Source of the DNA: a virus
Virus record (IMG/VR): IMGVR_UViG_3300049027_000140
Coordinates: 34,116-98,115 of that record
Reading direction: 5' to 3' (one strand)
DNA length: 64,000 bases
The stretch's first letter is position 1. Each line of letters begins with the position of its first letter. Shown here piece after piece: positions 22,737 through 56,170 of this stretch. Under the pieces are notes generated by a model that searched no databases, was not told the DNA's origin, and worked only from the letters and a program-made list of their open reading frames with translations. The translations under genes were made by a program, and so were the position numbers.

Positions 22737-23756
22737 CTACACCGCCCTCTCGTGGACCTTGAAGCTGCCCGGCTCCGCGGCGCGCGCGCCTGTCGTGACG
22801 ACGGTGTACTCGTACACGCCGGCGCCGCGCTCCTCGGTGATCTCGACCTGCACGTCGAACGTCCCCTCCCCGGTACGGATCACGGCATCGCCATCCCCGC
22901 TGGTGGGCGCGACCCCATAGACCAGATCGAAGCTATCCCCGAGCGGGGTGCGCACGCTGACGGTGAGCGACGACGGGTCGACGAACTCGCCGGCGCGTGT
23001 GCGGACGGTGATGCCGGGAATGACGGCGGTGTCGCCGATGTGGAGTCTGGCCATGGGCCTCGTCAGGGTGATCGTGTGGGTGGAGGCGACCGCGGGCAGC
23101 GCGAGCTCGTAGAGGGCGCCTGCGCGCGGCAGCGTGAGAAAGGCGGGCTCGTCGTCTTCGCCGGAGGTGACCAGCGAGCCGGTCGCGTCGGCGGTGAGCG
23201 CCGGGAGCGCGGCGGAGCCGGTGCCGACGAAGCGGAGCGCGCCCGTCGCCGCGGCGACCATGGCTGGCAGCGAGACGGCCGCCGTGCCGGCGAAGACCAG
23301 CGTGATGGTTCCGGCGCCCGCGGCGGCGATACCCGGGAGCGCGGCCGCTCCGGTCCCGGCGAAGCCCAGTGCGCCGGCGGCGTCGCTCTCCAGCACGCCC
23401 AGAGCGACCGCGGCGGCGCCGAGGAAGACCTGCAGGCCGTCGCCATCGGCGGCGGGCGCCGGCAGGGCAGCGGCCCCGGTACCGGAAAACCCCAGCGCCC
23501 CGTCCCCCTCGCTGGCGACCGTCGGGAGCTCCACATCGGCCGTGCCGGCGAAGGTCTGGCTCCCCTCGCCCGCGGCCCCCAGCGCAGGCAGCGCCACGGC
23601 CGCGACGCCCACGAAGACCAGCTGGCCGACGCCGGCGGCGGTCAGGGTCGGGAGCTCAGCCTCGGCCGCGCCATCGACCGGCGGCGGCGCATCGCCGAGC
23701 GGCAGGTCGAGCGGCCCCGCGCCGGGACCGCGGAGAGCGATGTCGAGCGCGGCCAT
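22737..23756 (-). CDS. Virion fibre-like protein: eight ~21-aa repeats plus C-terminal Ig/BppU-like domain
   Basis: xGxAxxxLPxxxAxGxGxxxF repeats; C-terminal IGDT..VDPSSLTVSVRTP.G beta sandwich. Confidence 0.65.
   Translation of the reverse strand: MAALDIALRGPGAGPLDLPLGDAPPPVDGAAEAELPTLTAAGVGQLVFVGVAAVALPALGAAGEGSQTFAGTADVELPTVASEGDGALGFSGTGAAALPAPAADGDGLQVFLGAAAVALGVLESDAAGALGFAGTGAAALPGIAAAGAGTITLVFAGTAAVSLPAMVAAATGALRFVGTGSAALPALTADATGSLVTSGEDDEPAFLTLPRAGALYELALPAVASTHTITLTRPMARLHIGDTAVIPGITVRTRAGEFVDPSSLTVSVRTPLGDSFDLVYGVAPTSGDGDAVIRTGEGTFDVQVEITEERGAGVYEYTVVTTGARAAEPGSFKVHERAV
23166..23675 (-). repeat. Coding tandem repeat, 8 x ~63 bp
   Basis: For example SGTGAAALPAPAADGDGLQVF and VGTGSAALPALTADATGSLVT. 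Confidence 0.75.
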
Positions 23757-23759
23757 CGC

Positions 23760-25706
23760 TCAGCTCGGGGTGAACGGCAGGGTGCGACCCGACTTCGTGC
23801 CGTACTCCGTCTGGGCGTACAGCTCCAAGGTGTCGCTGTAGAAGGTGAACGAGTATCCGCCGCCGACGGCGCTCGTGGTCTGGTAGAGGAGCTCGTCGTT
23901 GTCGGCCCGGTGGACCTTGATCACGGCGCCGGACCCGTCCCCCTCGCTGGCGAAGTCGGAGAGCGTCCCACTCTCGCTGACCGTGATCGTGTGATACGTG
24001 ATGCTCGCGACGAACGACGAGAAGCCGCCGTGGCTGTTGGTGCCGTCCAAGAATCCAGAGATGCGCCACGTGCGCGAGGTCTCCAGCTCGAGCCGGTTCG
24101 GGTCAGGGTCTACCGGGTGCCGGTAGAAGTGCGCTGAGGCGTTGCACCACGGCGTGTTCACCGAGGTCTCGTTCGACACGCAGAAGCCGTTGGTCAGCAG
24201 CGTCTCCCACCCGTCGCCGATCCCCTCTCCGCTCTGGCGCTCGGCCAGGAGCGCGAGCATCCCGCGGCCGGCCTGCAAAAAGTCGATCTTGAAGCCGAGG
24301 CAGGTGACCCAGTATTCGCTCTCTGGGATCGCCGGCTGAAACGTGTAGTCCCGGACCGTGGACGAGCCCACCGCATCCGTCCCGCCGCCCCACAGATCGA
24401 TCGTGTGGTTGTGCGCGCCGGCGCCGTCGGCTGCCAGATCCGACACGTAGTTGAGGATGAGCATCGAGGTCCAGCCGTAGCCGGCGCCGCCGCTGCCCGT
24501 GCTGGTCCGGTACCAGGCCAGCGTGATCTCGTTCTCCCCGCGCGCGAGCGTCACGCCGCTGCCCGCCGCGGCGCCGGAGTCGAACCGGTGGCACACCGTC
24601 TGCTGCCCGGCAGGGCTGTTGTACAACGTGCTCGGCGTGTAGGTCCTGTGGCTTTGCGAGCCGACAGCGATATTGAGGCCGGCGAGCGTGCTGTTGGGCA
24701 TGTTGTAGGCTGCCACCACCCCGCTCTGCTTCAGCGTGATCGTCCCCGGCTCCTCAATGGGCACCACCATCGAGACCTTGGACTGGAGCCCAGATGTGGC
24801 CCCGCCGAAGTTGCCCGGCTCGGTGGGCATCGGCATCTGGAGCGAGTTCAGAAGCTGCGTCGTCGTGTCGTGGTCGTAGGTGTAGGTGACGTAGAGCAGA
24901 GCGAACAGCTGCGGGAACTTCCCTGTCGCGGTGCCGCGCGCCTTGAAGGCGTGCGCGGTGGACGTGGCCATGTCGGTCCGCTTCCAGACGGCCTCCAGCC
25001 ACGGCGACGAGTCGAGCGCCTGCTCGCAGACGCCGAGCGTCACCTCGCTCTCCGCATCGAGCGAGACCGCGAGCGAGAAGTCCGTGGTCCCCGAGGCGTG
25101 GCCCTCGTTCGCCATCACCACGAAAAAGATGTCCCGGATGGTGATGCCCGCCTCCGGGAGGAGCCCGCCGACGCCGGTGAGCTGCGGGATCTGGTTCGTC
25201 CCGATCTCCGCGAGCGAGTCGGTCAGCGTGCTCGCCGCACTCTCCAGCGGGATGCAGACGCTCTTCGTGCGGGTGCTCGCGCTCGCGTCGTCGTAGCTGT
25301 ACGTGATGACGAGCCGCGCGCTGTGGTTGATGGTCGGAAGCGTGCCGAACTGCACCGCGACCTGGACCGAATGCGAGGTGCCGGTGAAGTTGGTCTGGAG
25401 GTAGCTCGTGACGTCGCGGCGGAACCTGAACGAGTCCTGGTCGCCGCTGGTGCCGATGGTCTCGACCTTCGACTCGTCGTTCCACGCGACGGCATCGACT
25501 CGGATCCCGATGAGCCGGCTGGTCATCGACGTGGCCGCGGTCTCGTTGCCTCGGCAGGCGACCTCCAGGTACGCCGACACGATGGTGCGGCTCGACGTCT
25601 CCGCGATGGCGACGGTGATGGCGCCGAACTCCCGGCGCGTGGCCGCGGCGAGCGCGGTGGCGTCGGTGGTCCAGCCGTAGGTGACGGTGCTGGTGCGGAT
25701 CGCCAT
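23760..25706 (-). CDS. Large Ser/Thr-rich beta protein, putative fibre tip/receptor-binding protein
   Basis: 648 aa, beta-rich; C-terminal SGTL..VIKVHRAD..ELL..TTS..GGYSF domain. Confidence 0.6.
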   Translation of the reverse strand: MAIRTSTVTYGWTTDATALAAATRREFGAITVAIAETSSRTIVSAYLEVACRGNETAATSMTSRLIGIRVDAVAWNDESKVETIGTSGDQDSFRFRRDVTSYLQTNFTGTSHSVQVAVQFGTLPTINHSARLVITYSYDDASASTRTKSVCIPLESAASTLTDSLAEIGTNQIPQLTGVGGLLPEAGITIRDIFFVVMANEGHASGTTDFSLAVSLDAESEVTLGVCEQALDSSPWLEAVWKRTDMATSTAHAFKARGTATGKFPQLFALLYVTYTYDHDTTTQLLNSLQMPMPTEPGNFGGATSGLQSKVSMVVPIEEPGTITLKQSGVVAAYNMPNSTLAGLNIAVGSQSHRTYTPSTLYNSPAGQQTVCHRFDSGAAAGSGVTLARGENEITLAWYRTSTGSGGAGYGWTSMLILNYVSDLAADGAGAHNHTIDLWGGGTDAVGSSTVRDYTFQPAIPESEYWVTCLGFKIDFLQAGRGMLALLAERQSGEGIGDGWETLLTNGFCVSNETSVNTPWCNASAHFYRHPVDPDPNRLELETSRTWRISGFLDGTNSHGGFSSFVASITYHTITVSESGTLSDFASEGDGSGAVIKVHRADNDELLYQTTSAVGGGYSFTFYSDTLELYAQTEYGTKSGRTLPFTPS

Positions 25707-25709
25707 GGG

Positions 25710-26508: not shown

Positions 26509-27222
26509 TCAGCCCGGGAACGAGCGGTAGACGCCCGTCATCCGGTGGGCGTACTGGTCCGGCGTTTCGGTGAACCACACGAGTTCGCCGAGCTTGAGCG
26601 CGGCGTCGTATGGGCGGCCTGCGTCGAAGAGGGGCAGCGCGTCCTCGTAGGTCTTCGACATCACGCGCCAGTAGTCCGCCGAGCCGGCCTGCGGCGTCCC
26701 GTGCGCGCGAAACAGCATGTCGCGCCACTCCCACCGATCCGGGTTCTGCTCGATGCGCTCCTGGACGCGGATGACGTACACCGAGCCCTGCCAGCGGAAG
26801 CCAGTGATGTTGCCGAAGTTGTTGCAGTAGACGTGTTGCCCGCGGCCGTTCTCGAGCGCCACGTGGGCCCAGGCGACGGCGAGGCGCGACCGTGTCGGCT
26901 GCGCACCGAAGACCGCTTCGTGGCCCCGGGCGAGAGCGTTGGCGAGGCCGACCTCGGAGAGCGGCGTATGCACCTTCTCGACACGGCGGCGCTCGGCCTG
27001 CGGCGGCGTCGCCTCGTCGGCGAGCTCGGCTCGGGTCTGCGGCCCGACGATGCCGTCGGCGTGGAGGCCGCGGGCTGCCTGGAAGGCGCGCGCGGCGGCC
27101 TCGGTCTTGCGGCCGAAGATGCCGTCGCTCGGACCAGGGTCGTGCCCGCGGGCGCGGAGGAGGTCCTGGACGGCGGCGACGTCCGCGCCGGAGGAGTCAC
27201 GGCGAAGGATGCGCGGCCTCAC
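26509..27222 (-). CDS. Endolysin 2: PG-binding domain plus GH73/FlgJ-like glucosaminidase
   Basis: DGIFGRKT..FQ..GL.ADGIVGPQT; ALENG.G..NNFGNI; FRAH..; WFT....Y. Confidence 0.82.
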   Translation of the reverse strand: MRPRILRRDSSGADVAAVQDLLRARGHDPGPSDGIFGRKTEAAARAFQAARGLHADGIVGPQTRAELADEATPPQAERRRVEKVHTPLSEVGLANALARGHEAVFGAQPTRSRLAVAWAHVALENGRGQHVYCNNFGNITGFRWQGSVYVIRVQERIEQNPDRWEWRDMLFRAHGTPQAGSADYWRVMSKTYEDALPLFDAGRPYDAALKLGELVWFTETPDQYAHRMTGVYRSFPG

Positions 27223-28055
27223 GCGGCCCCCTTCTGCCGCAGCGCGCAGTTCGGCGGGCACGTCCGGTGGCACGCTCCCGCGGGCGCGCCCTCCTTCTCG
27301 GCCAACCGGTGGCGAGCCTTCTCGAGCGCCCCGTTGAGGCGCGTGCGGTCCGCCTCCACCGTGTCGATCGCGTAGAGCAGATCCCGGAACTCGGCCTCGT
27401 GGTGCTCGTGCGGGACCTCGAGACGAGCCTGGATCACACGGGCCCACGTCTCCCCGTCGTGTGTCGCGTGCAGGTGCGCGGTCAGCGCGAGGACGACGGA
27501 CTCGAGCGCGGCTACCTCGCGAGAGACACGGCGGGTCAATGCGTCGAAGCTGCGACCCCCGCGCTTGAACGAGATGGCCGCCGGGAAGAAGTCCCGGATG
27601 TCGCGCTCGGGAATCCGCGTAGCCCTGACCGTCGGCGTGCGGCCGGGTCCCGTGCGGACGAGACCGAACATCGCCTCGATCTCCCACAGCCCGAAGTCCT
27701 CGGTGTGCGAGATGCACACCCGATCGAAGCGCTCGGTGAAGCGCGCGGCCTCCTGAAGACCCGTTGCGATCTTGACCACCGCGTCGCCCAGAAACCGCCA
27801 CTCCCTGAACTGGGCCATGTACTGGCCAGGCACCTCGCCGTCGTAGAGGTCGTGGCTGATCTGGACGAGTTCAGCCCGATCCCCCTCTGTGGCAGCGATC
27901 ATGATGGCACGCCGCCCGGGGTGCTCGATGCGCCAGAAGGCGGCGCGAACGAGGATCTCCCGCTTCCGACGGCTGCGCTCGCCTTCGAGCATGAGGCATT
28001 CCTCGTCCCCCTCCACGAAGCGCGCCTCGAAGCTCTCGAGCGTGGCGTCGGTCAT
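27219..28055 (-). CDS. Degenerate Terminase_6-like ATPase-domain protein with helical C-terminus
   Basis: Motif order of a terminase ATPase (EHPG.RAI..T, S.DLY, W.F, FD, VRAT..P) with Walker A/B degraded; coupled to both endolysins. Confidence 0.6.
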   Translation of the reverse strand: MTDATLESFEARFVEGDEECLMLEGERSRRKREILVRAAFWRIEHPGRRAIMIAATEGDRAELVQISHDLYDGEVPGQYMAQFREWRFLGDAVVKIATGLQEAARFTERFDRVCISHTEDFGLWEIEAMFGLVRTGPGRTPTVRATRIPERDIRDFFPAAISFKRGGRSFDALTRRVSREVAALESVVLALTAHLHATHDGETWARVIQARLEVPHEHHEAEFRDLLYAIDTVEADRTRLNGALEKARHRLAEKEGAPAGACHRTCPPNCALRQKGAA

Positions 28056-29470
28056 CCGTCGAGCCATCCAGCGCCGCGGAATTTCGGGTCCCGGAGATCA
28101 CGATCCATCTCGGCCACGCGGTCACCCTTCGCTCCGCTGTTGCCCTCGACCGTTTTGACCTTCGTGCCGCTGACGGTCCGGCGCTTGATGCCGACGTGGC
28201 CGCGCCAATCGTCGCGCGTCGTGCGGTCCCAGAATATGAGCATCCCGTCGCGGAGTTTGAGCGGGTCCTTGAGCAGATCGTCGGCGTCGATGAAGCGCCC
28301 GGCGCGCCGGAACTGCGCCTCGAGCGTCTTCGCGCCCGCGCTCCCGATGACGGGCGCCACGGTACCAATCGCCTCTGCCGCGTCGAGGATCCACGAACTC
28401 GCCGTGACGGAGCACCAGTCAGCAGGCGGCTCGATGTCGAAGCGGCGGAGATATTGCCCGATGCGCTCGCCGTCGTTGGGCCGCTCCTCGCAGACGCCGG
28501 CCTCGAGGTCGGCCACGGCGCGCGCGAGCGCGGCGGCCGCGAGTCCATCGGGCGGCGCCGCCGGCTGCGGCCGAGGCCGCACCATCTCCGCGGCGGCCCG
28601 CGTCTTCGGCCCGACCACACCGTCGGCCTTGAGGTGTGCGTCGCCCTGGAACTCCTTCGTGGCGCGCTCGACCAGCGGCCCGAACGCGCCATCAGGCGCG
28701 CCGGGGTCGTAGCCCAGGGCGATCAGGCGCTCCTGCCAGGCGAGAACGTCGGGCCCCTTCGCGCCGCGCTTGAGCGCCCGCGGCGGCTCGCGCTCGGTCG
28801 AGGGTGGCTCCGGCGTGTCGCGGCTCTCGGTCGGCGCTGCGCCCCCGCTCGCCATGGCGTCCGCCGCGAACGTGGGCCCCCACCCATCGCGCGCGGCGAC
28901 GTGCTCGGCCTTGTCGTCTGTCGCGACGTTGTGCGCGCGCACGAGAAAGCGCCCGCCCTGCCCACCGGCGAGCTTCAGGACCTCCTCGGCGACCTTCGTC
29001 GTGCTCGCTACGTTGCCGTAGGTCCGGACGTCCGTGTGCCCGATCCAGAGCGTCGAGCGCCCCGCCTTCGCCTCACGCGCCCAGTCGACCAGCCACTGCA
29101 CGCCCGCGTCGCTCGCGGTGTTGTCGCGGTCCAGCGTCGTGTGCCCGCCGTCGAGCAGCACGAGGCCGGCGAGCTCGGCGCGGTCGGCCGGCCGCATGGC
29201 GCGTGCGAGGGCGTAGGAGCCCGACCAGCAGACGAGCCACGTCGAGGCGTAGCCCTGCCGCGGCGGCTTGTACTTCGCGAGAAGGCCGGGTAGCACGCGG
29301 CCGTTCTGGAGGCAGGCGTGGGCCAGCGCGTCGTAGGCGGCGCTCATGCCGGCGTACGGCGAGCGGATCGGCACGACGTCCACGTCGAGACCACGAGCCG
29401 CGGCGGCAGCGCCGAACATGGGCGCGACGTCCGGCGTGGCGTGCGCGAGGAGGATGAGGTGGTGGCTCAC
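28052..29470 (-). CDS. Endolysin 1: alpha/beta-hydrolase-like domain, PG-binding domain and CHAP amidase
   Basis: LVCWSGSY..GLVLLDGGH; DGAFGP..FQ..L.ADGVVGPKT; DWCSVTASSW..GHVGI..TVEGN. Confidence 0.82.
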   Translation of the reverse strand: MSHHLILLAHATPDVAPMFGAAAAARGLDVDVVPIRSPYAGMSAAYDALAHACLQNGRVLPGLLAKYKPPRQGYASTWLVCWSGSYALARAMRPADRAELAGLVLLDGGHTTLDRDNTASDAGVQWLVDWAREAKAGRSTLWIGHTDVRTYGNVASTTKVAEEVLKLAGGQGGRFLVRAHNVATDDKAEHVAARDGWGPTFAADAMASGGAAPTESRDTPEPPSTEREPPRALKRGAKGPDVLAWQERLIALGYDPGAPDGAFGPLVERATKEFQGDAHLKADGVVGPKTRAAAEMVRPRPQPAAPPDGLAAAALARAVADLEAGVCEERPNDGERIGQYLRRFDIEPPADWCSVTASSWILDAAEAIGTVAPVIGSAGAKTLEAQFRRAGRFIDADDLLKDPLKLRDGMLIFWDRTTRDDWRGHVGIKRRTVSGTKVKTVEGNSGAKGDRVAEMDRDLRDPKFRGAGWLDG

Positions 29471-29802
29471 GGGGTGGCTCTTGGCGGCGGGATGGTCAGC
29501 GCGTCCGGCTCGGTCGGGTCGGGGTCCGGCGGCTCCTCGCCACGCAGGGCGGTGCCAGGGAGCGGCCGCGAGGGAGCGCTCGCTCCCGGCGTAGCTCGGC
29601 TGAGCCGCTCGTCGATGCCGGCGTGGCCCCGCGCCGTGATGTCGGCGTCGGCGCGCTTGGGGAAGTTGTCCGTCCTGCGCGGCGTGGGCGTGGCCGGTTT
29701 CGGGGTCGGCTTGGCGGCCACGCGGTTCACGAGGAAGGCGCCGATCGCGGCGACAGCGACCTCGGCGAGGAGCGTGCCCAGTTTGTCCCAGGGGAACTTC
29801 AC
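29467..29802 (-). CDS. Small membrane-anchored Pro-rich protein (lysis cassette)
   Basis: N-terminal hydrophobic helix; GTGA coupling. Confidence 0.5.
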   Translation of the reverse strand: MKFPWDKLGTLLAEVAVAAIGAFLVNRVAAKPTPKPATPTPRRTDNFPKRADADITARGHAGIDERLSRATPGASAPSRPLPGTALRGEEPPDPDPTEPDALTIPPPRATP

Positions 29803-30305
29803 GAGCAGGCCTCCATTGCGCCCTGGTTGGGCGTGATGGCGGCTTGCCGCGGCGCTGGCGCCCGCGGCTGCCCGAGCGTCTCGATGGCGCGCCAGAGGTC
29901 CTCGCTCGCGATCGCGAGGCGGACGACGGCCTGCCCGAGCACCAGCGCGTTGGGCCGGCGCCCTGCTGCGACGGCGGCGCGCGCGGTCTCCGCGGTGGCC
30001 TTCGCGACGAAATAGGCGGCCTTGATCGCGTCGTAGGCGTCCCAGGCTGGCAGGTAGCGGGCGTGGAGTTCGGCGATCTGGCGGTGGCCCGTCGCGGCAT
30101 CCGGCGCGGTCGCCTCGATCCGCTCGCGCTCGGCGTCGTGCATCGCCTTGAGCACGCGGTGCCCCTCGGTGATGGCCACGGCGGCGGCGTCCAGTGCGTC
30201 GTCCACGTCGGCGAAGGCGTCGGCGGTCTGCGCCTGGCTCTGGCTGCCGGCGCACCCCGAGAGCAGCGCCAGCGCGAACACGGCGAGCAGGACGAGCGCC
30301 TTCAC
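29799..30305 (-). CDS. Lipoprotein, spanin candidate
   Basis: MKALVLLAVFALALLSGC lipobox; helical body; within lysis cassette. Confidence 0.65.
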   Translation of the reverse strand: MKALVLLAVFALALLSGCAGSQSQAQTADAFADVDDALDAAAVAITEGHRVLKAMHDAERERIEATAPDAATGHRQIAELHARYLPAWDAYDAIKAAYFVAKATAETARAAVAAGRRPNALVLGQAVVRLAIASEDLWRAIETLGQPRAPAPRQAAITPNQGAMEACS

Positions 30306-30724
30306 CGCGGCTCCTTGCCGGGCAAGGACATCGCCACCGGAGGCGCCTCCGGGATCGTGTCCTGCGGCGCGCCAGGCTCCAGCGAGAGCGGCACGTCGAG
30401 TTCGGGGATGGGCGACGGCGCGGCGGCGGGTGGCACCGCGGGCGCGTTCGCCTTCGCCGCCTCCGCCTGCGCGAGCATCGCTCGGACGTCAGCGACCGCC
30501 TTCGCCAGGTTCTTGAGCTCGGCGATGAAGCGCACGTGGTCTCCGGAGAAGAACGCGGCGAGCGCCCCGCATACGGCGCCGACAACGAGCGACCACAGCT
30601 TCACCGACGGGTGCGCGCCAGCCGCTTCCGCGACGGCGTAGGCGATGAAGCCGAACGCGCTGAAGAAGCCCAGGAGCGACGAGCGCCAGGACTGCGTGAT
30701 CGAGCCGTTGAACTTCAGGTCCAT
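30302..30724 (-). CDS. Two-TM holin candidate
   Basis: Two hydrophobic helices; upstream of lysins. Confidence 0.55.
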   Translation of the reverse strand: MDLKFNGSITQSWRSSLLGFFSAFGFIAYAVAEAAGAHPSVKLWSLVVGAVCGALAAFFSGDHVRFIAELKNLAKAVADVRAMLAQAEAAKANAPAVPPAAAPSPIPELDVPLSLEPGAPQDTIPEAPPVAMSLPGKEPR

Positions 30725-31242
30725 CACTTCACCCTCGGCAGCGGCATCATGGGCGCGGCCGCCGCCGACGACGCCTCCGCCGGCGGCAGGATTCCCGGCG
30801 GGCAGCAGACGCCGCTGCGGCAGCTGTCCGAGCCGTCGCTCACATCGCACGGCGTCCCGTCGGCCAGCACCGTCCAGCGGCACGTGCCGCGCCGGCCGTA
30901 CGGGTCCGGAGGGCTGTGCGGCTCCGCGAGGTCGCAGACGTCCTGGCTGCACTGGCTGCCGTCGAAGCAATCGGAGTCGTTCTCGCAGGTCGTGTGCTTC
31001 GGCGCGCGGACCTCGCAGCCGCCGGGCTCACGCGGGCCCTCCGAGGCGCCCGCAGACGTCGAGGCGACGCTCGCGGCCGCGCTCTCAGCGGTCTCCGCGG
31101 CGCCGCCAGCACCGGAGGCGCCGACGCTGGTCGAGGTGGTGGCCTCCGGCTGCGGGCCGGGCTCGGGGCGGCAGGTGGCGATCAGGGCGCACAGCGCGAG
31201 CGTCGCCGCCCCGCCGATGGGGTACAGGGTGGATCTCTGCAT
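30724..31242 (-). CDS. Exported Cys-rich protein (myxobacterial type)
   Basis: Signal-like N-terminus, Ser/Ala linker, C..DSDC.DG..CS.DVC..DGTPC. Confidence 0.6.
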   Translation of the reverse strand: MQRSTLYPIGGAATLALCALIATCRPEPGPQPEATTSTSVGASGAGGAAETAESAAASVASTSAGASEGPREPGGCEVRAPKHTTCENDSDCFDGSQCSQDVCDLAEPHSPPDPYGRRGTCRWTVLADGTPCDVSDGSDSCRSGVCCPPGILPPAEASSAAAAPMMPLPRVK

Positions 31243-31574: not shown

Positions 31575-31613
31575 CCGCGCCCGCAGCGCCATGCCGTGGT
31601 AAGCCTCGGCGGC

Positions 31614-32276
31614 GTGACGCCGCTCTCCCCGCTCACTCTCATCCTCGCCGCCTGCGTCGTGCTGGCGTGGGCTCTCGCCCGCGGCTGGCGCGGACGCCCG
31701 CAGTGGCCGTTCTATCGGCCCGTGGCGCTGCTGCTCTCGTGGGCGCTCGCGACGTCTATCGCCCGTGGCGCCATCCAGCACTGGGCGCTGAACCCGGCGC
31801 GTGAGGCGATCGGGCCGGAAGCGCCGTACAGCGGCCAGGGCCACGCCTGGTACCTCGCCGAGGTGGCCATCCGGCTCTCGTGGCCCTTCGCGATCTTCGG
31901 CGCGACGCTGGCCGTGTACCTGCGGCGCCGGCCGTGGTGGCTTGTGCCAGCGTGGGCGGTCGCCGCCGCGGCGCTCTGCTGGAGCTACCCGGAGGTCCGC
32001 CGAGAGCTCCAGTGGCACCTCGAGGCCGGCGTGGCCTCCGCCTGCTGGTTGGCCTCAGCGTGGGCCGTGTGGCGCTGGTACGCGGGCGACGAGAGTGCGC
32101 CAGTGGCCTCGCACACGGCCATGATCCTCGTGCTCGCGGCCCAGCTGTCGGTGCTCGCCGTGACGCAGTGGAGCGGCAATCCGGTGGAGCACTGGACGAG
32201 CGCCCGTGTCACACACGGCGTCATGTACGCGGCCGTGCTAGTTTACCAGGCGCGGAAGTTCTGGGGGGAACGCTGA
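31614..32276 (+). CDS. Polytopic membrane protein, about 7 TM (moron)
   Basis: Multiple Trp/Ala-rich hydrophobic helices. Confidence 0.7.
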   Translation: MTPLSPLTLILAACVVLAWALARGWRGRPQWPFYRPVALLLSWALATSIARGAIQHWALNPAREAIGPEAPYSGQGHAWYLAEVAIRLSWPFAIFGATLAVYLRRRPWWLVPAWAVAAAALCWSYPEVRRELQWHLEAGVASACWLASAWAVWRWYAGDESAPVASHTAMILVLAAQLSVLAVTQWSGNPVEHWTSARVTHGVMYAAVLVYQARKFWGER

Positions 32277-55474: not shown

Positions 55475-56170
55475 CTACGCGGCGCGGCCGCTCTCGAGCG
55501 GGAAGAGGCCGAGCACGCGCGAGCGGTAGAGAGGGTGGCTCGCGTAGTCCGGTCCCCATTCGCGCCGCTTCTCATCGATCCACGCGCGCGTCGCGAGGCC
55601 GTGGATGACCCTCTCGCCGGTCTGCGCGTTCGGTGTGTCCTCGCTGTTGAGGCGCATGGTCGACCAGCGCGGCTCGTGCGCGCCGTGGTGGATCTGGTGC
55701 CAGAGCGTGCCGGGCTCGGCCTTGGCGAGGCCGAACATGATGGCGCGAGCGCCGGCGTCCGTTGCCTGGTCGATCGCGCGCAGAGTCTCGTCGCTCAGAT
55801 GGTCCGCGTTGTCGACGACGATCAGCTCGGTCCTGCCGACCACTTCGAGCGGATCAGGTCTCCACCATGAGAACTCCGACGAGCAGAAATAGATCTTGCT
55901 CTCCGCGGCCCGACCCGGCAGCAGGTTCAGTACGTCGTTCACCAGAACGATGCCTGGTGACACCAGGTGCACACGTGACCATCGCGTCGCGTAGAACCAG
56001 AGCGCCGCCGCTGCTGCGGCGGTCGTCATGCCGGTCTTGTGACCGGACACGACTGCGAGCCGCGGCGCCTCGGCAGCCGCGCGCAGGACGTCCTCCTGCC
56101 CACGCCAGAGCGTGAGCCCGAGGTCCTCGCGGGCGAACTCGCTGGGAGACACGTTCGACTGGTCGCTCAT
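55475..56170 (-). CDS. Inactive TerL ATPase-domain paralogue (no nuclease domain)
   Basis: Aligns by eye to the N-terminal half of TerL (58160-59794); Walker A GHKTGMT, Walker B VVDNA. Confidence 0.85.
   Translation of the reverse strand: MSDQSNVSPSEFAREDLGLTLWRGQEDVLRAAAEAPRLAVVSGHKTGMTTAAAAAALWFYATRWSRVHLVSPGIVLVNDVLNLLPGRAAESKIYFCSSEFSWWRPDPLEVVGRTELIVVDNADHLSDETLRAIDQATDAGARAIMFGLAKAEPGTLWHQIHHGAHEPRWSTMRLNSEDTPNAQTGERVIHGLATRAWIDEKRREWGPDYASHPLYRSRVLGLFPLESGRAA

Follow-up and report, generated by a model that had tools for sequence, protein, structure and literature searches.

A large-terminase-type ATPase fold without its catalytic motifs in a conserved late protein of a Sorangium myovirus

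Introduction

In tailed phages, the large terminase subunit (TerL) is a hallmark motor protein, usually found as an active ATPase-nuclease that is encoded beside the portal gene. Here, we analyse a gene (27219..28055, minus strand) that is located between two lysin genes and encodes a 278-residue protein with a TerL-type ATPase fold. The gene lies in a 64,000-nucleotide stretch of DNA, referred to as the window, which comprises bases 34116-98115 of the 98-kb IMG/VR virus record IMGVR_UViG_3300049027_000140 and has a GC content of 70%. A sequence-only reading of the window had described the protein as a captured foreign terminase scaffold repurposed as a non-catalytic late protein.

The closest described proteins are the Terminase_6N TerLs (Pfam PF03237), e.g. 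those of psiM2 and Ounavirinae as well as those resident in Polyangiales. The 278-residue protein has the same additional strand catalytic glutamate (ASCE) fold and strand order, and the order and spacing of motifs are common to both: a pre-P-loop helix, an 8-residue P-loop, an EW.F.(S)GA strand, a Walker B strand followed by ..F, an (S)RAR helix and an R.T..P strand. By contrast, it lacks the Walker A Ser/Thr, the catalytic Glu, the NP of the coupling motif and the Terminase_6C nuclease domain, has Ala-Ala in place of two arginines after strand 2 in the window copy, is not encoded beside the genes for the small terminase subunit (TerS) or the portal, and contains an extra four-helix domain with a Cys3His motif. 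The packaging ATPases of the phi29 gp16 type are likewise stand-alone folds without a nuclease domain; however, phi29 gp16 has intact Walker motifs and works as an active motor, scores below the TerLs in structure comparison (5hd9, Z 12.0) and has no sequence relationship to the protein. Finally, non-catalytic ASCE subunits such as F1 alpha and clamp-loader delta-prime keep the P-loop fold, have degenerate catalytic residues and are used for binding or structure. F1 alpha and beta chains are among the Foldseek PDB matches of the protein, with a root-mean-square deviation (rmsd) of ~17 Å and over the common core only; this likeness is an analogy only, and any ring partner of the protein is hypothetical.

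The N-terminal domain has a large-terminase-type fold

27540..28055, minus strand: N-terminal domain, residues 1-172, large-terminase-type ASCE P-loop fold (AlphaFold2 model, structure and profile matches)

An AlphaFold2 model of the protein built with the alignment of its family had a predicted local distance difference test (pLDDT) score of 80.8. Using VIA-align, a structure search that is independent of Foldseek, we compared the model with ~48,000 PDB representatives. The top six matches were all TerLs, i.e. those of P74-26 (Z 15.4), D6E (Z 15.3), Sf6 (Z 15.0), PhiV-1 (Z 14.6), T4 (gp17, Z 14.6) and HK97 (Z 14.1); the TerL matches had an rmsd of 2.8-3.3 over 161-173 aligned residues and covered model residues 1-165/176. 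Helicases ranked below the TerLs (Z <=13.5). Similarly, in a Foldseek search of the BFVD predicted viral structures, the top matches were TerLs and most of the named matches among the top 50 were terminases (E 4e-9 to 1e-5), and a search of the ESM Atlas led to Terminase_6N clusters.

Profile comparisons gave the same assignment. The family profile retrieved full-length TerLs from genomes of Polyangiales/Myxococcota (E ~1e-11 to 7e-14), which have the Pfam architecture Terminase_6N+6C and the motifs GGAAGGGK[ST], FDELTHF and [SA]T[ST]NPGG. The family hidden Markov model (HMM) scored 40-53 bits on these Myxococcota TerLs vs 19-29 bits on the TerLs of psiM2 and Ounavirinae, which belong to the same broad lineage and come from phages that infect other hosts. 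In hhalign, the family aligned with a Terminase_6N/6C TerL profile over 151 columns (Prob 97.5, E 6.6e-12); the identity of the window protein to the aligned Terminase_6N TerLs was only ~19%. Scans of the single sequence against Pfam and PHROGs gave nothing useful, with no match to the Pfam terminase model at E <=1, and neither did scans of the protein against NCBIfam and PADLOC; a profile search of PDB by sequence returned only a chance match (E 1.7). In total, we conclude that residues 1-172 very probably derive from the ATPase domain of a large terminase of the Terminase_6N type. Thus, the VIA-align, BFVD and hhalign results uphold the earlier observation that the first ~160 residues follow the motif order of Terminase_6-type TerLs.

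The catalytic motifs are degenerate

27960..27983, minus strand: Walker A remnant G25-E-R-S-R-R-K31-R32, aligned with GAAGGGKT of TerL
27705..27722, minus strand: Walker B remnant R112-V-C-I-S116-H117, with CISH aligned with GFDE of TerL
27609..27626, minus strand: coupling-motif remnant R144-A-T-R-I-P149, aligned with R-S-T-S-N-P of TerL

The sequence-only reading had stated that Walker A is degenerate, that the Asp and Glu of Walker B are lost and that NP has changed to IP. Column by column, GERSRRKR is opposite GAAGGGKT, CISH is opposite GFDE and RATRIP is opposite RSTSNP, in agreement with all three statements.

The family comprises ~13 homologs with 35-86% identity, 12 of which were aligned. 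In Walker A, the first Gly (G25) and K31 are invariant in the 12 members, down to 35% identity, and no member has a Ser or Thr after the Lys. The second Gly is replaced by Arg in the Sorangium clade, and the most distant members retain CGK in the P-loop. At the position of the Walker B Asp, the window copy has Ser (VCISH vs VCIDH in most members) and seven of the 12 members have Asp; the position of the catalytic Glu is occupied by His in 11 members, by Arg in one and by Glu in none. NP of the coupling motif is lost family-wide. Moreover, in the hhalign columns after strand 2, the window copy has two Ala opposite two Arg that are invariant in TerLs. R134 and R144 are invariant in the family and correspond to invariant arginines of TerLs, and Cys114 and His117 are nearly invariant.

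None of the characteristics of a functional large terminase that we looked for was found, i.e. a Walker A GxxxxGK[ST], a Walker B with Asp and Glu, a nuclease domain, and adjacency to TerS or the portal. The gene is located between the two lysin genes, ~30 kb from the portal gene. As previously noted, a nuclease domain is missing: residues 176-278 form a four-helix bundle and have no Terminase_6C match. The alignments indicate that the family is old and that the catalytic motifs are missing throughout. Judging from its motifs, the protein is probably unable to hydrolyse ATP or to drive DNA packaging.

The C-terminal domain is specific to the family

27222..27530, minus strand: C-terminal domain, residues 176-278, four-helix bundle and tail, family-specific (AlphaFold2)
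27246..27272, minus strand: tip C262-H263-R-T-C266-x3-C270, putative metal-binding knuckle (invariant columns)

Folded alone with AlphaFold2, the C-terminal domain had a pLDDT of 87.8 and a predicted template modelling (pTM) score of 0.82. In the structure search, it matched generic four-helix bundles only (Z <=7.5); in BFVD, there was no match below E 0.7 and no specific relative could be named. The helical tail with a CxxxCxxxC tip that had been read from the sequence recurs in the family in the form C262-H263-x2-C266-x3-C270, with C262, H263, C266 and C270 invariant in all 12 aligned members. The Cys3His tip may hold a metal.

The family is small and under purifying selection

The ORF of the gene shows coding periodicity (GC1/2/3 = 0.71/0.50/0.87); from an alternative ATG at 28067, it would encode 282 residues. 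In close orthologs, the ratio of nonsynonymous to synonymous substitutions (dN/dS) was 0.15-0.19 in both domains, and the reading frame was intact in every copy seen. We conclude that this is a genuine late gene under purifying selection.

The closest relatives of the protein are hypothetical proteins from Sorangium strains, and the source phage is a Sorangium myovirus. A profile word-search, a wider search, both metagenome scans, viral scans and tblastn on cultured phages revealed no members beyond the ~13. The family is unassigned in Pfam, NCBIfam, PADLOC and the PHROG functions; when four of its members were compared with the PADLOC models, which only include systems known until 2023, there was no match at E <=1. 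In literature searches, we did not find terminase decoys, pseudo-terminases or such a protein.

More distant copies with ~40% identity were found in a metagenome-assembled genome (MAG) labelled 'uncultured Cellvibrionaceae', which contains four family copies, two of which are cut at contig ends. On one MAG contig, the family gene is ~2.8 kb from a gene for a GH25 lysin and a homolog of the lipoprotein of the lysis cassette described below. The contigs with family copies have a GC content of ~66-70%, and each copy lies in a repeated module together with genes for a ~290-residue protein and an HTH_8 protein. The ~290-residue protein, which is encoded convergently with the MAG copies, was considered as an SLT transglycosylase and rejected, having no Pfam match. 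The MAG data suggest multiple related prophages in a possibly mislabelled bin.

The protein is distinct from the TerL of the phage

58160..~59800 (start approximate), minus strand: TerL of the phage (phrog_2), with GHKIGKS, LIDEA and FSNPT intact, immediately upstream of the Mu-type portal gene

The minus strand of the window carries a myovirus late operon with genes for TerL, a Mu-type portal (PF06074, E 2e-65), a protease, the major head protein, sheath, tape measure and baseplate. The TerL encoded here had no significant similarity to the family of the 278-residue protein (hhalign Prob 0.2; 2.3 bits). In a tree of TerLs, which is based on a small sample and has long branches, the family was monophyletic (98/95) and placed beside the Terminase_6N TerLs; the TerL of the phage and a paralog of it formed a separate clade (100/99). 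Thus, hhalign, bit scores and the tree all agree with the earlier statements that the protein does not resemble the TerL of the phage and comes from a different lineage.

The paralog (55475-56170, minus strand) is a second ATPase-only, motif-damaged terminase copy and is encoded between the portal and protease genes. Its identity to the N-terminal half of the phage TerL is 32% (E 6e-33), with GHKIGKS and LIDE replaced by GHKTGMT and VVDN, respectively. At the profile level, it is unrelated to the family of the 278-residue protein (hhalign Prob 0.2-0.3, together with the TerL of the phage). All three proteins have the TerL-ATPase fold and are encoded on the same late strand, and the paralog resembles the 278-residue protein in being ATPase-only with damaged motifs; however, the TerL of the phage and its paralog belong to a lineage apart from the clade of the family and the Terminase_6N TerLs.

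The gene lies inside a lysis cassette

30302-30724, minus strand: holin-like protein with two transmembrane segments (ORF translation; role inferred from sequence features)
29799-30305, minus strand: lipoprotein (ORF translation; role predicted from sequence features)
29467-~29800, minus strand: small transmembrane protein (ORF translation and frame plot; role predicted from sequence features)
28052..29470, minus strand: lysin 1, 472 residues, with an N-terminal domain without family match, PG_binding_1 and a CHAP-like peptidase
26509..27222, minus strand: lysin 2, 237 residues, with PG_binding_1 and a weak glucosaminidase/FlgJ-like domain

Because it is flanked by the lysin genes, with genes for a transmembrane protein, a lipoprotein and a holin-like protein further upstream, the gene lies inside a lysis cassette. 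PG_binding_1 was detected in both lysins (E 5e-16 and 3.5e-17), both of which match PHROG endolysin families, and the CHAP-like C terminus of lysin 1 has the conserved Cys and His. The ATG of the gene at 28055 overlaps the TGA of lysin 1 (28052-28054) as ATGA, and its TGA (27219-27221) overlaps the GTG of lysin 2 (27220-27222) as GTGA; hence, the translational coupling to both lysin genes proposed earlier can be read directly in the sequence. The GTG start of lysin 1 in turn overlaps the stop codon of the preceding gene for the transmembrane protein. A scan of 22-33 kb for promoters and terminators, which is uninformative for a myxobacterial phage with 70% GC, gave no promoter-like site and one terminator-like site (plus strand, 32616). 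Among sequencing runs, the DNA is listed only for the soil metagenome that is its probable source, and for no RNA run.

The gene travels with the lysis/fibre arm

Prophages of Sorangium So ce388 and So ce134 have an ortholog of the gene in the same lysis/fibre arm. These prophages share with the window only the arm from ~34.4 kb down to ~16 kb, which contains fibre genes, the lysis cassette, the gene itself and the genes for a 649- and a 340-residue protein; the upstream part of the cassette (29467..30724, minus strand) has orthologs at three relative loci. The ATGA overlap with lysin 1 is also present for the So ce134 ortholog, which is 51% identical.

Outside this arm, neither prophage has a relative of the Mu-type portal of the window, and neither prophage locus has a relative of its TerL; in So ce134, one is encoded at another chromosomal site, and in So ce388 no relative of the Mu-type TerL was detectable. 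Instead, a Terminase_6N-type TerL is encoded 34-40 kb upstream of the ortholog on the same strand in both. In So ce388, which is the one annotated, portal, protease, head, sheath, tape-measure, baseplate and fibre genes follow that of TerL in a contiguous prophage, and the head and tail genes differ from those of the window. The 278-residue protein is not a recent copy of the TerLs of these prophages (4.4 bits).

Because the ortholog is present in the same arm but together with a different TerL type and different head modules, we conclude that the gene moves as part of the lysis/fibre arm among phages whose packaging machines differ. Accordingly, the gene looks foreign relative to the resident TerL because of whole-module exchange, i.e. 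mosaicism, and not because the terminase of a rival was captured. The capture of a foreign terminase is not supported in the form proposed: the Walker A Ser/Thr and the Walker B Glu are missing from every family member, down to 35% identity, and So ce388 and So ce134 have the ortholog in prophages with a Terminase_6N-type TerL and other head modules.

A non-catalytic accessory protein as the favoured explanation

The explanation that best accounts for these observations, and in which we have moderate confidence, is that the protein is a two-domain pseudo-ATPase; a role as a non-catalytic late/lysis accessory is more tentative. The TerL-derived ATPase domain would have lost catalysis and would act as a binding module; the old active site may hold a phosphate-bearing ligand and the tip may hold a metal. 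The protein would be made late and in a fixed ratio with the CHAP lysin through the ATGA coupling, and would move between phages with the lysis/tail-fibre arm regardless of terminase type. An accessory role was judged most likely because of this linkage to the arm whatever the type of terminase. Among specific roles, the most likely one, which we propose tentatively, is that of an adaptor or regulator of the late/lysis programme rather than a part of the packaging motor.

Several observations weigh against this explanation. The loss of activity is deduced from motifs, and the invariant Walker A Lys together with the two core Arg may allow residual nucleotide binding or atypical catalysis. The lysis role and any partner are putative. 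The So ce134 locus does not have lysin 2; the MAG copies are not lysin-coupled, and on one contig the gene follows that of an HTH_3 regulator. Moreover, when the family HMM was run on 80 viral loci with PG_binding_1 lysins, the sole match was on the contig of the ortholog itself; with no family member at other such loci, the protein is not a general lysin partner. In 201 genomes of the host order, a full-length match to lysin 1 was found only in So ce388 and, therefore, this search yielded no related cassette without the gene for comparison. A complex prediction for the protein and the PG_binding and CHAP part of lysin 1 had a score of 0.00 and gave no verdict, speaking neither for nor against binding.

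The invariant residues could also point to a nucleotide-dependent switch or atypical NTPase, in which Lys31, Arg134, Arg144 and Cys114/His117 would form a remodelled ligand-sensing site, e.g. one through which the cellular energy state would be linked to a late step. The conserved length of the P-loop and G25 and K31 in all 12 members, the alignment of R134 and R144 with arginines of TerLs, and the CGK of the most distant members are consistent with such a site; however, no member has the Mg-coordinating Ser/Thr or the catalytic Glu, the Sorangium clade has Arg for the second P-loop Gly, and the window copy also lacks the Walker B Asp. We consider this unlikely. A non-functional terminase gene in decay, left behind by recombination, would be consistent with the absence of every catalytic motif and of a nuclease domain, but is extremely improbable in view of the intact frames, the low dN/dS in both domains, the confidently folded extra domain with its invariant Cys3His motif and the conserved overlaps of start and stop codons.

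It is also conceivable, if rather unlikely, that this phage lineage uses terminase-shaped dead proteins as mimics, with the 278-residue protein directed at a terminase type common among rival phages of myxobacteria or at terminase-sensing receptors of the host, either as a late poison subunit against rival packaging motors or as a decoy for TerL-sensing immunity. As a poison, the dead domain would enter or block the ring of a rival Terminase_6N terminase, or bind TerS or the portal, during co-infection or co-induction. The nearest TerLs, with the higher bit scores given above, reside in genomes from the order and phylum of the host; the Walker A Lys and the core fold are kept and catalysis is lost, as for a dominant-negative subunit, and the TerL of the window phage, being of the other type, would be spared. 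However, So ce388 and So ce134 use Terminase_6N-type TerLs and yet keep the gene at the risk of self-harm, which weakens the poison idea; with ~19% identity to those TerLs, surface mimicry is doubtful; and, unlike an exclusion gene expressed in lysogeny, the gene is tied into the late operon by overlapping codons and has no promoter-like site of its own. Packaging interference is therefore improbable, to about the same degree as a switch. As an immune decoy, the protein would mimic TerL for Avs-type STAND (signal transduction ATPases with numerous domains) NTPases and soak them up, or compete, without activation. The TerL-like fold, the PDB match to the PhiV-1 terminase chain in complex with Avs3 (8dgc_E, Z 14.6) and the paralog at 55475-56170 can be cited in favour; on the other hand, a TerL-shaped protein is expected to trigger Avs sensors rather than to silence them, no TerL decoy was found in the literature searched, no PADLOC family matched, and the two dead copies travel apart, given that So ce388 has the ortholog and no detectable relative of the Mu-type TerL. 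We regard a decoy as very unlikely. The probability that remains after these readings falls to functions other than these.

What is new here is a pseudo-enzyme with the TerL-ATPase fold, whose architecture and genomic setting are both new: in a small and selected family, the ATPase domain has become a pseudo-enzyme, is fused to a Cys3His helical domain and has been relocated to the lysis/fibre arm. This provides a concrete and testable case of the reuse of a packaging-motor domain for another job, and a warning to annotators that a match to a terminase-like fold does not make a protein a terminase. Given that the phage encodes a second dead TerL copy as well, one may ask what terminase-shaped non-enzymes do at the late stage of infection.

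Other genes of the shared arm

The lysis cassette is headed by a gene for a Cys-rich 172-residue protein (30724-31242, minus strand), which has a hydrophobic N terminus, weak matches to EB-module/DUF7107 and a counterpart in So ce388 with 51% identity. For the N-terminal ~210 residues of lysin 1 (28841-29470, minus strand), there was no family match. This part is missing in the So ce134 lysin, whose alignment to lysin 1 starts only at residue 211, indicating domain shuffling within the lysin.

A gene for a 233-residue protein without family match (31575-32276) is on the plus strand within the minus-strand late block and is kept in both Sorangium prophages (57-62% identity). Finally, the 649-residue (23760-25709, minus strand) and 340-residue (22737-23759, minus strand) proteins, which are encoded downstream of the cassette and are without family assignment, are the products of the most strongly conserved genes in the shared arm, with up to 86% identity to So ce134.

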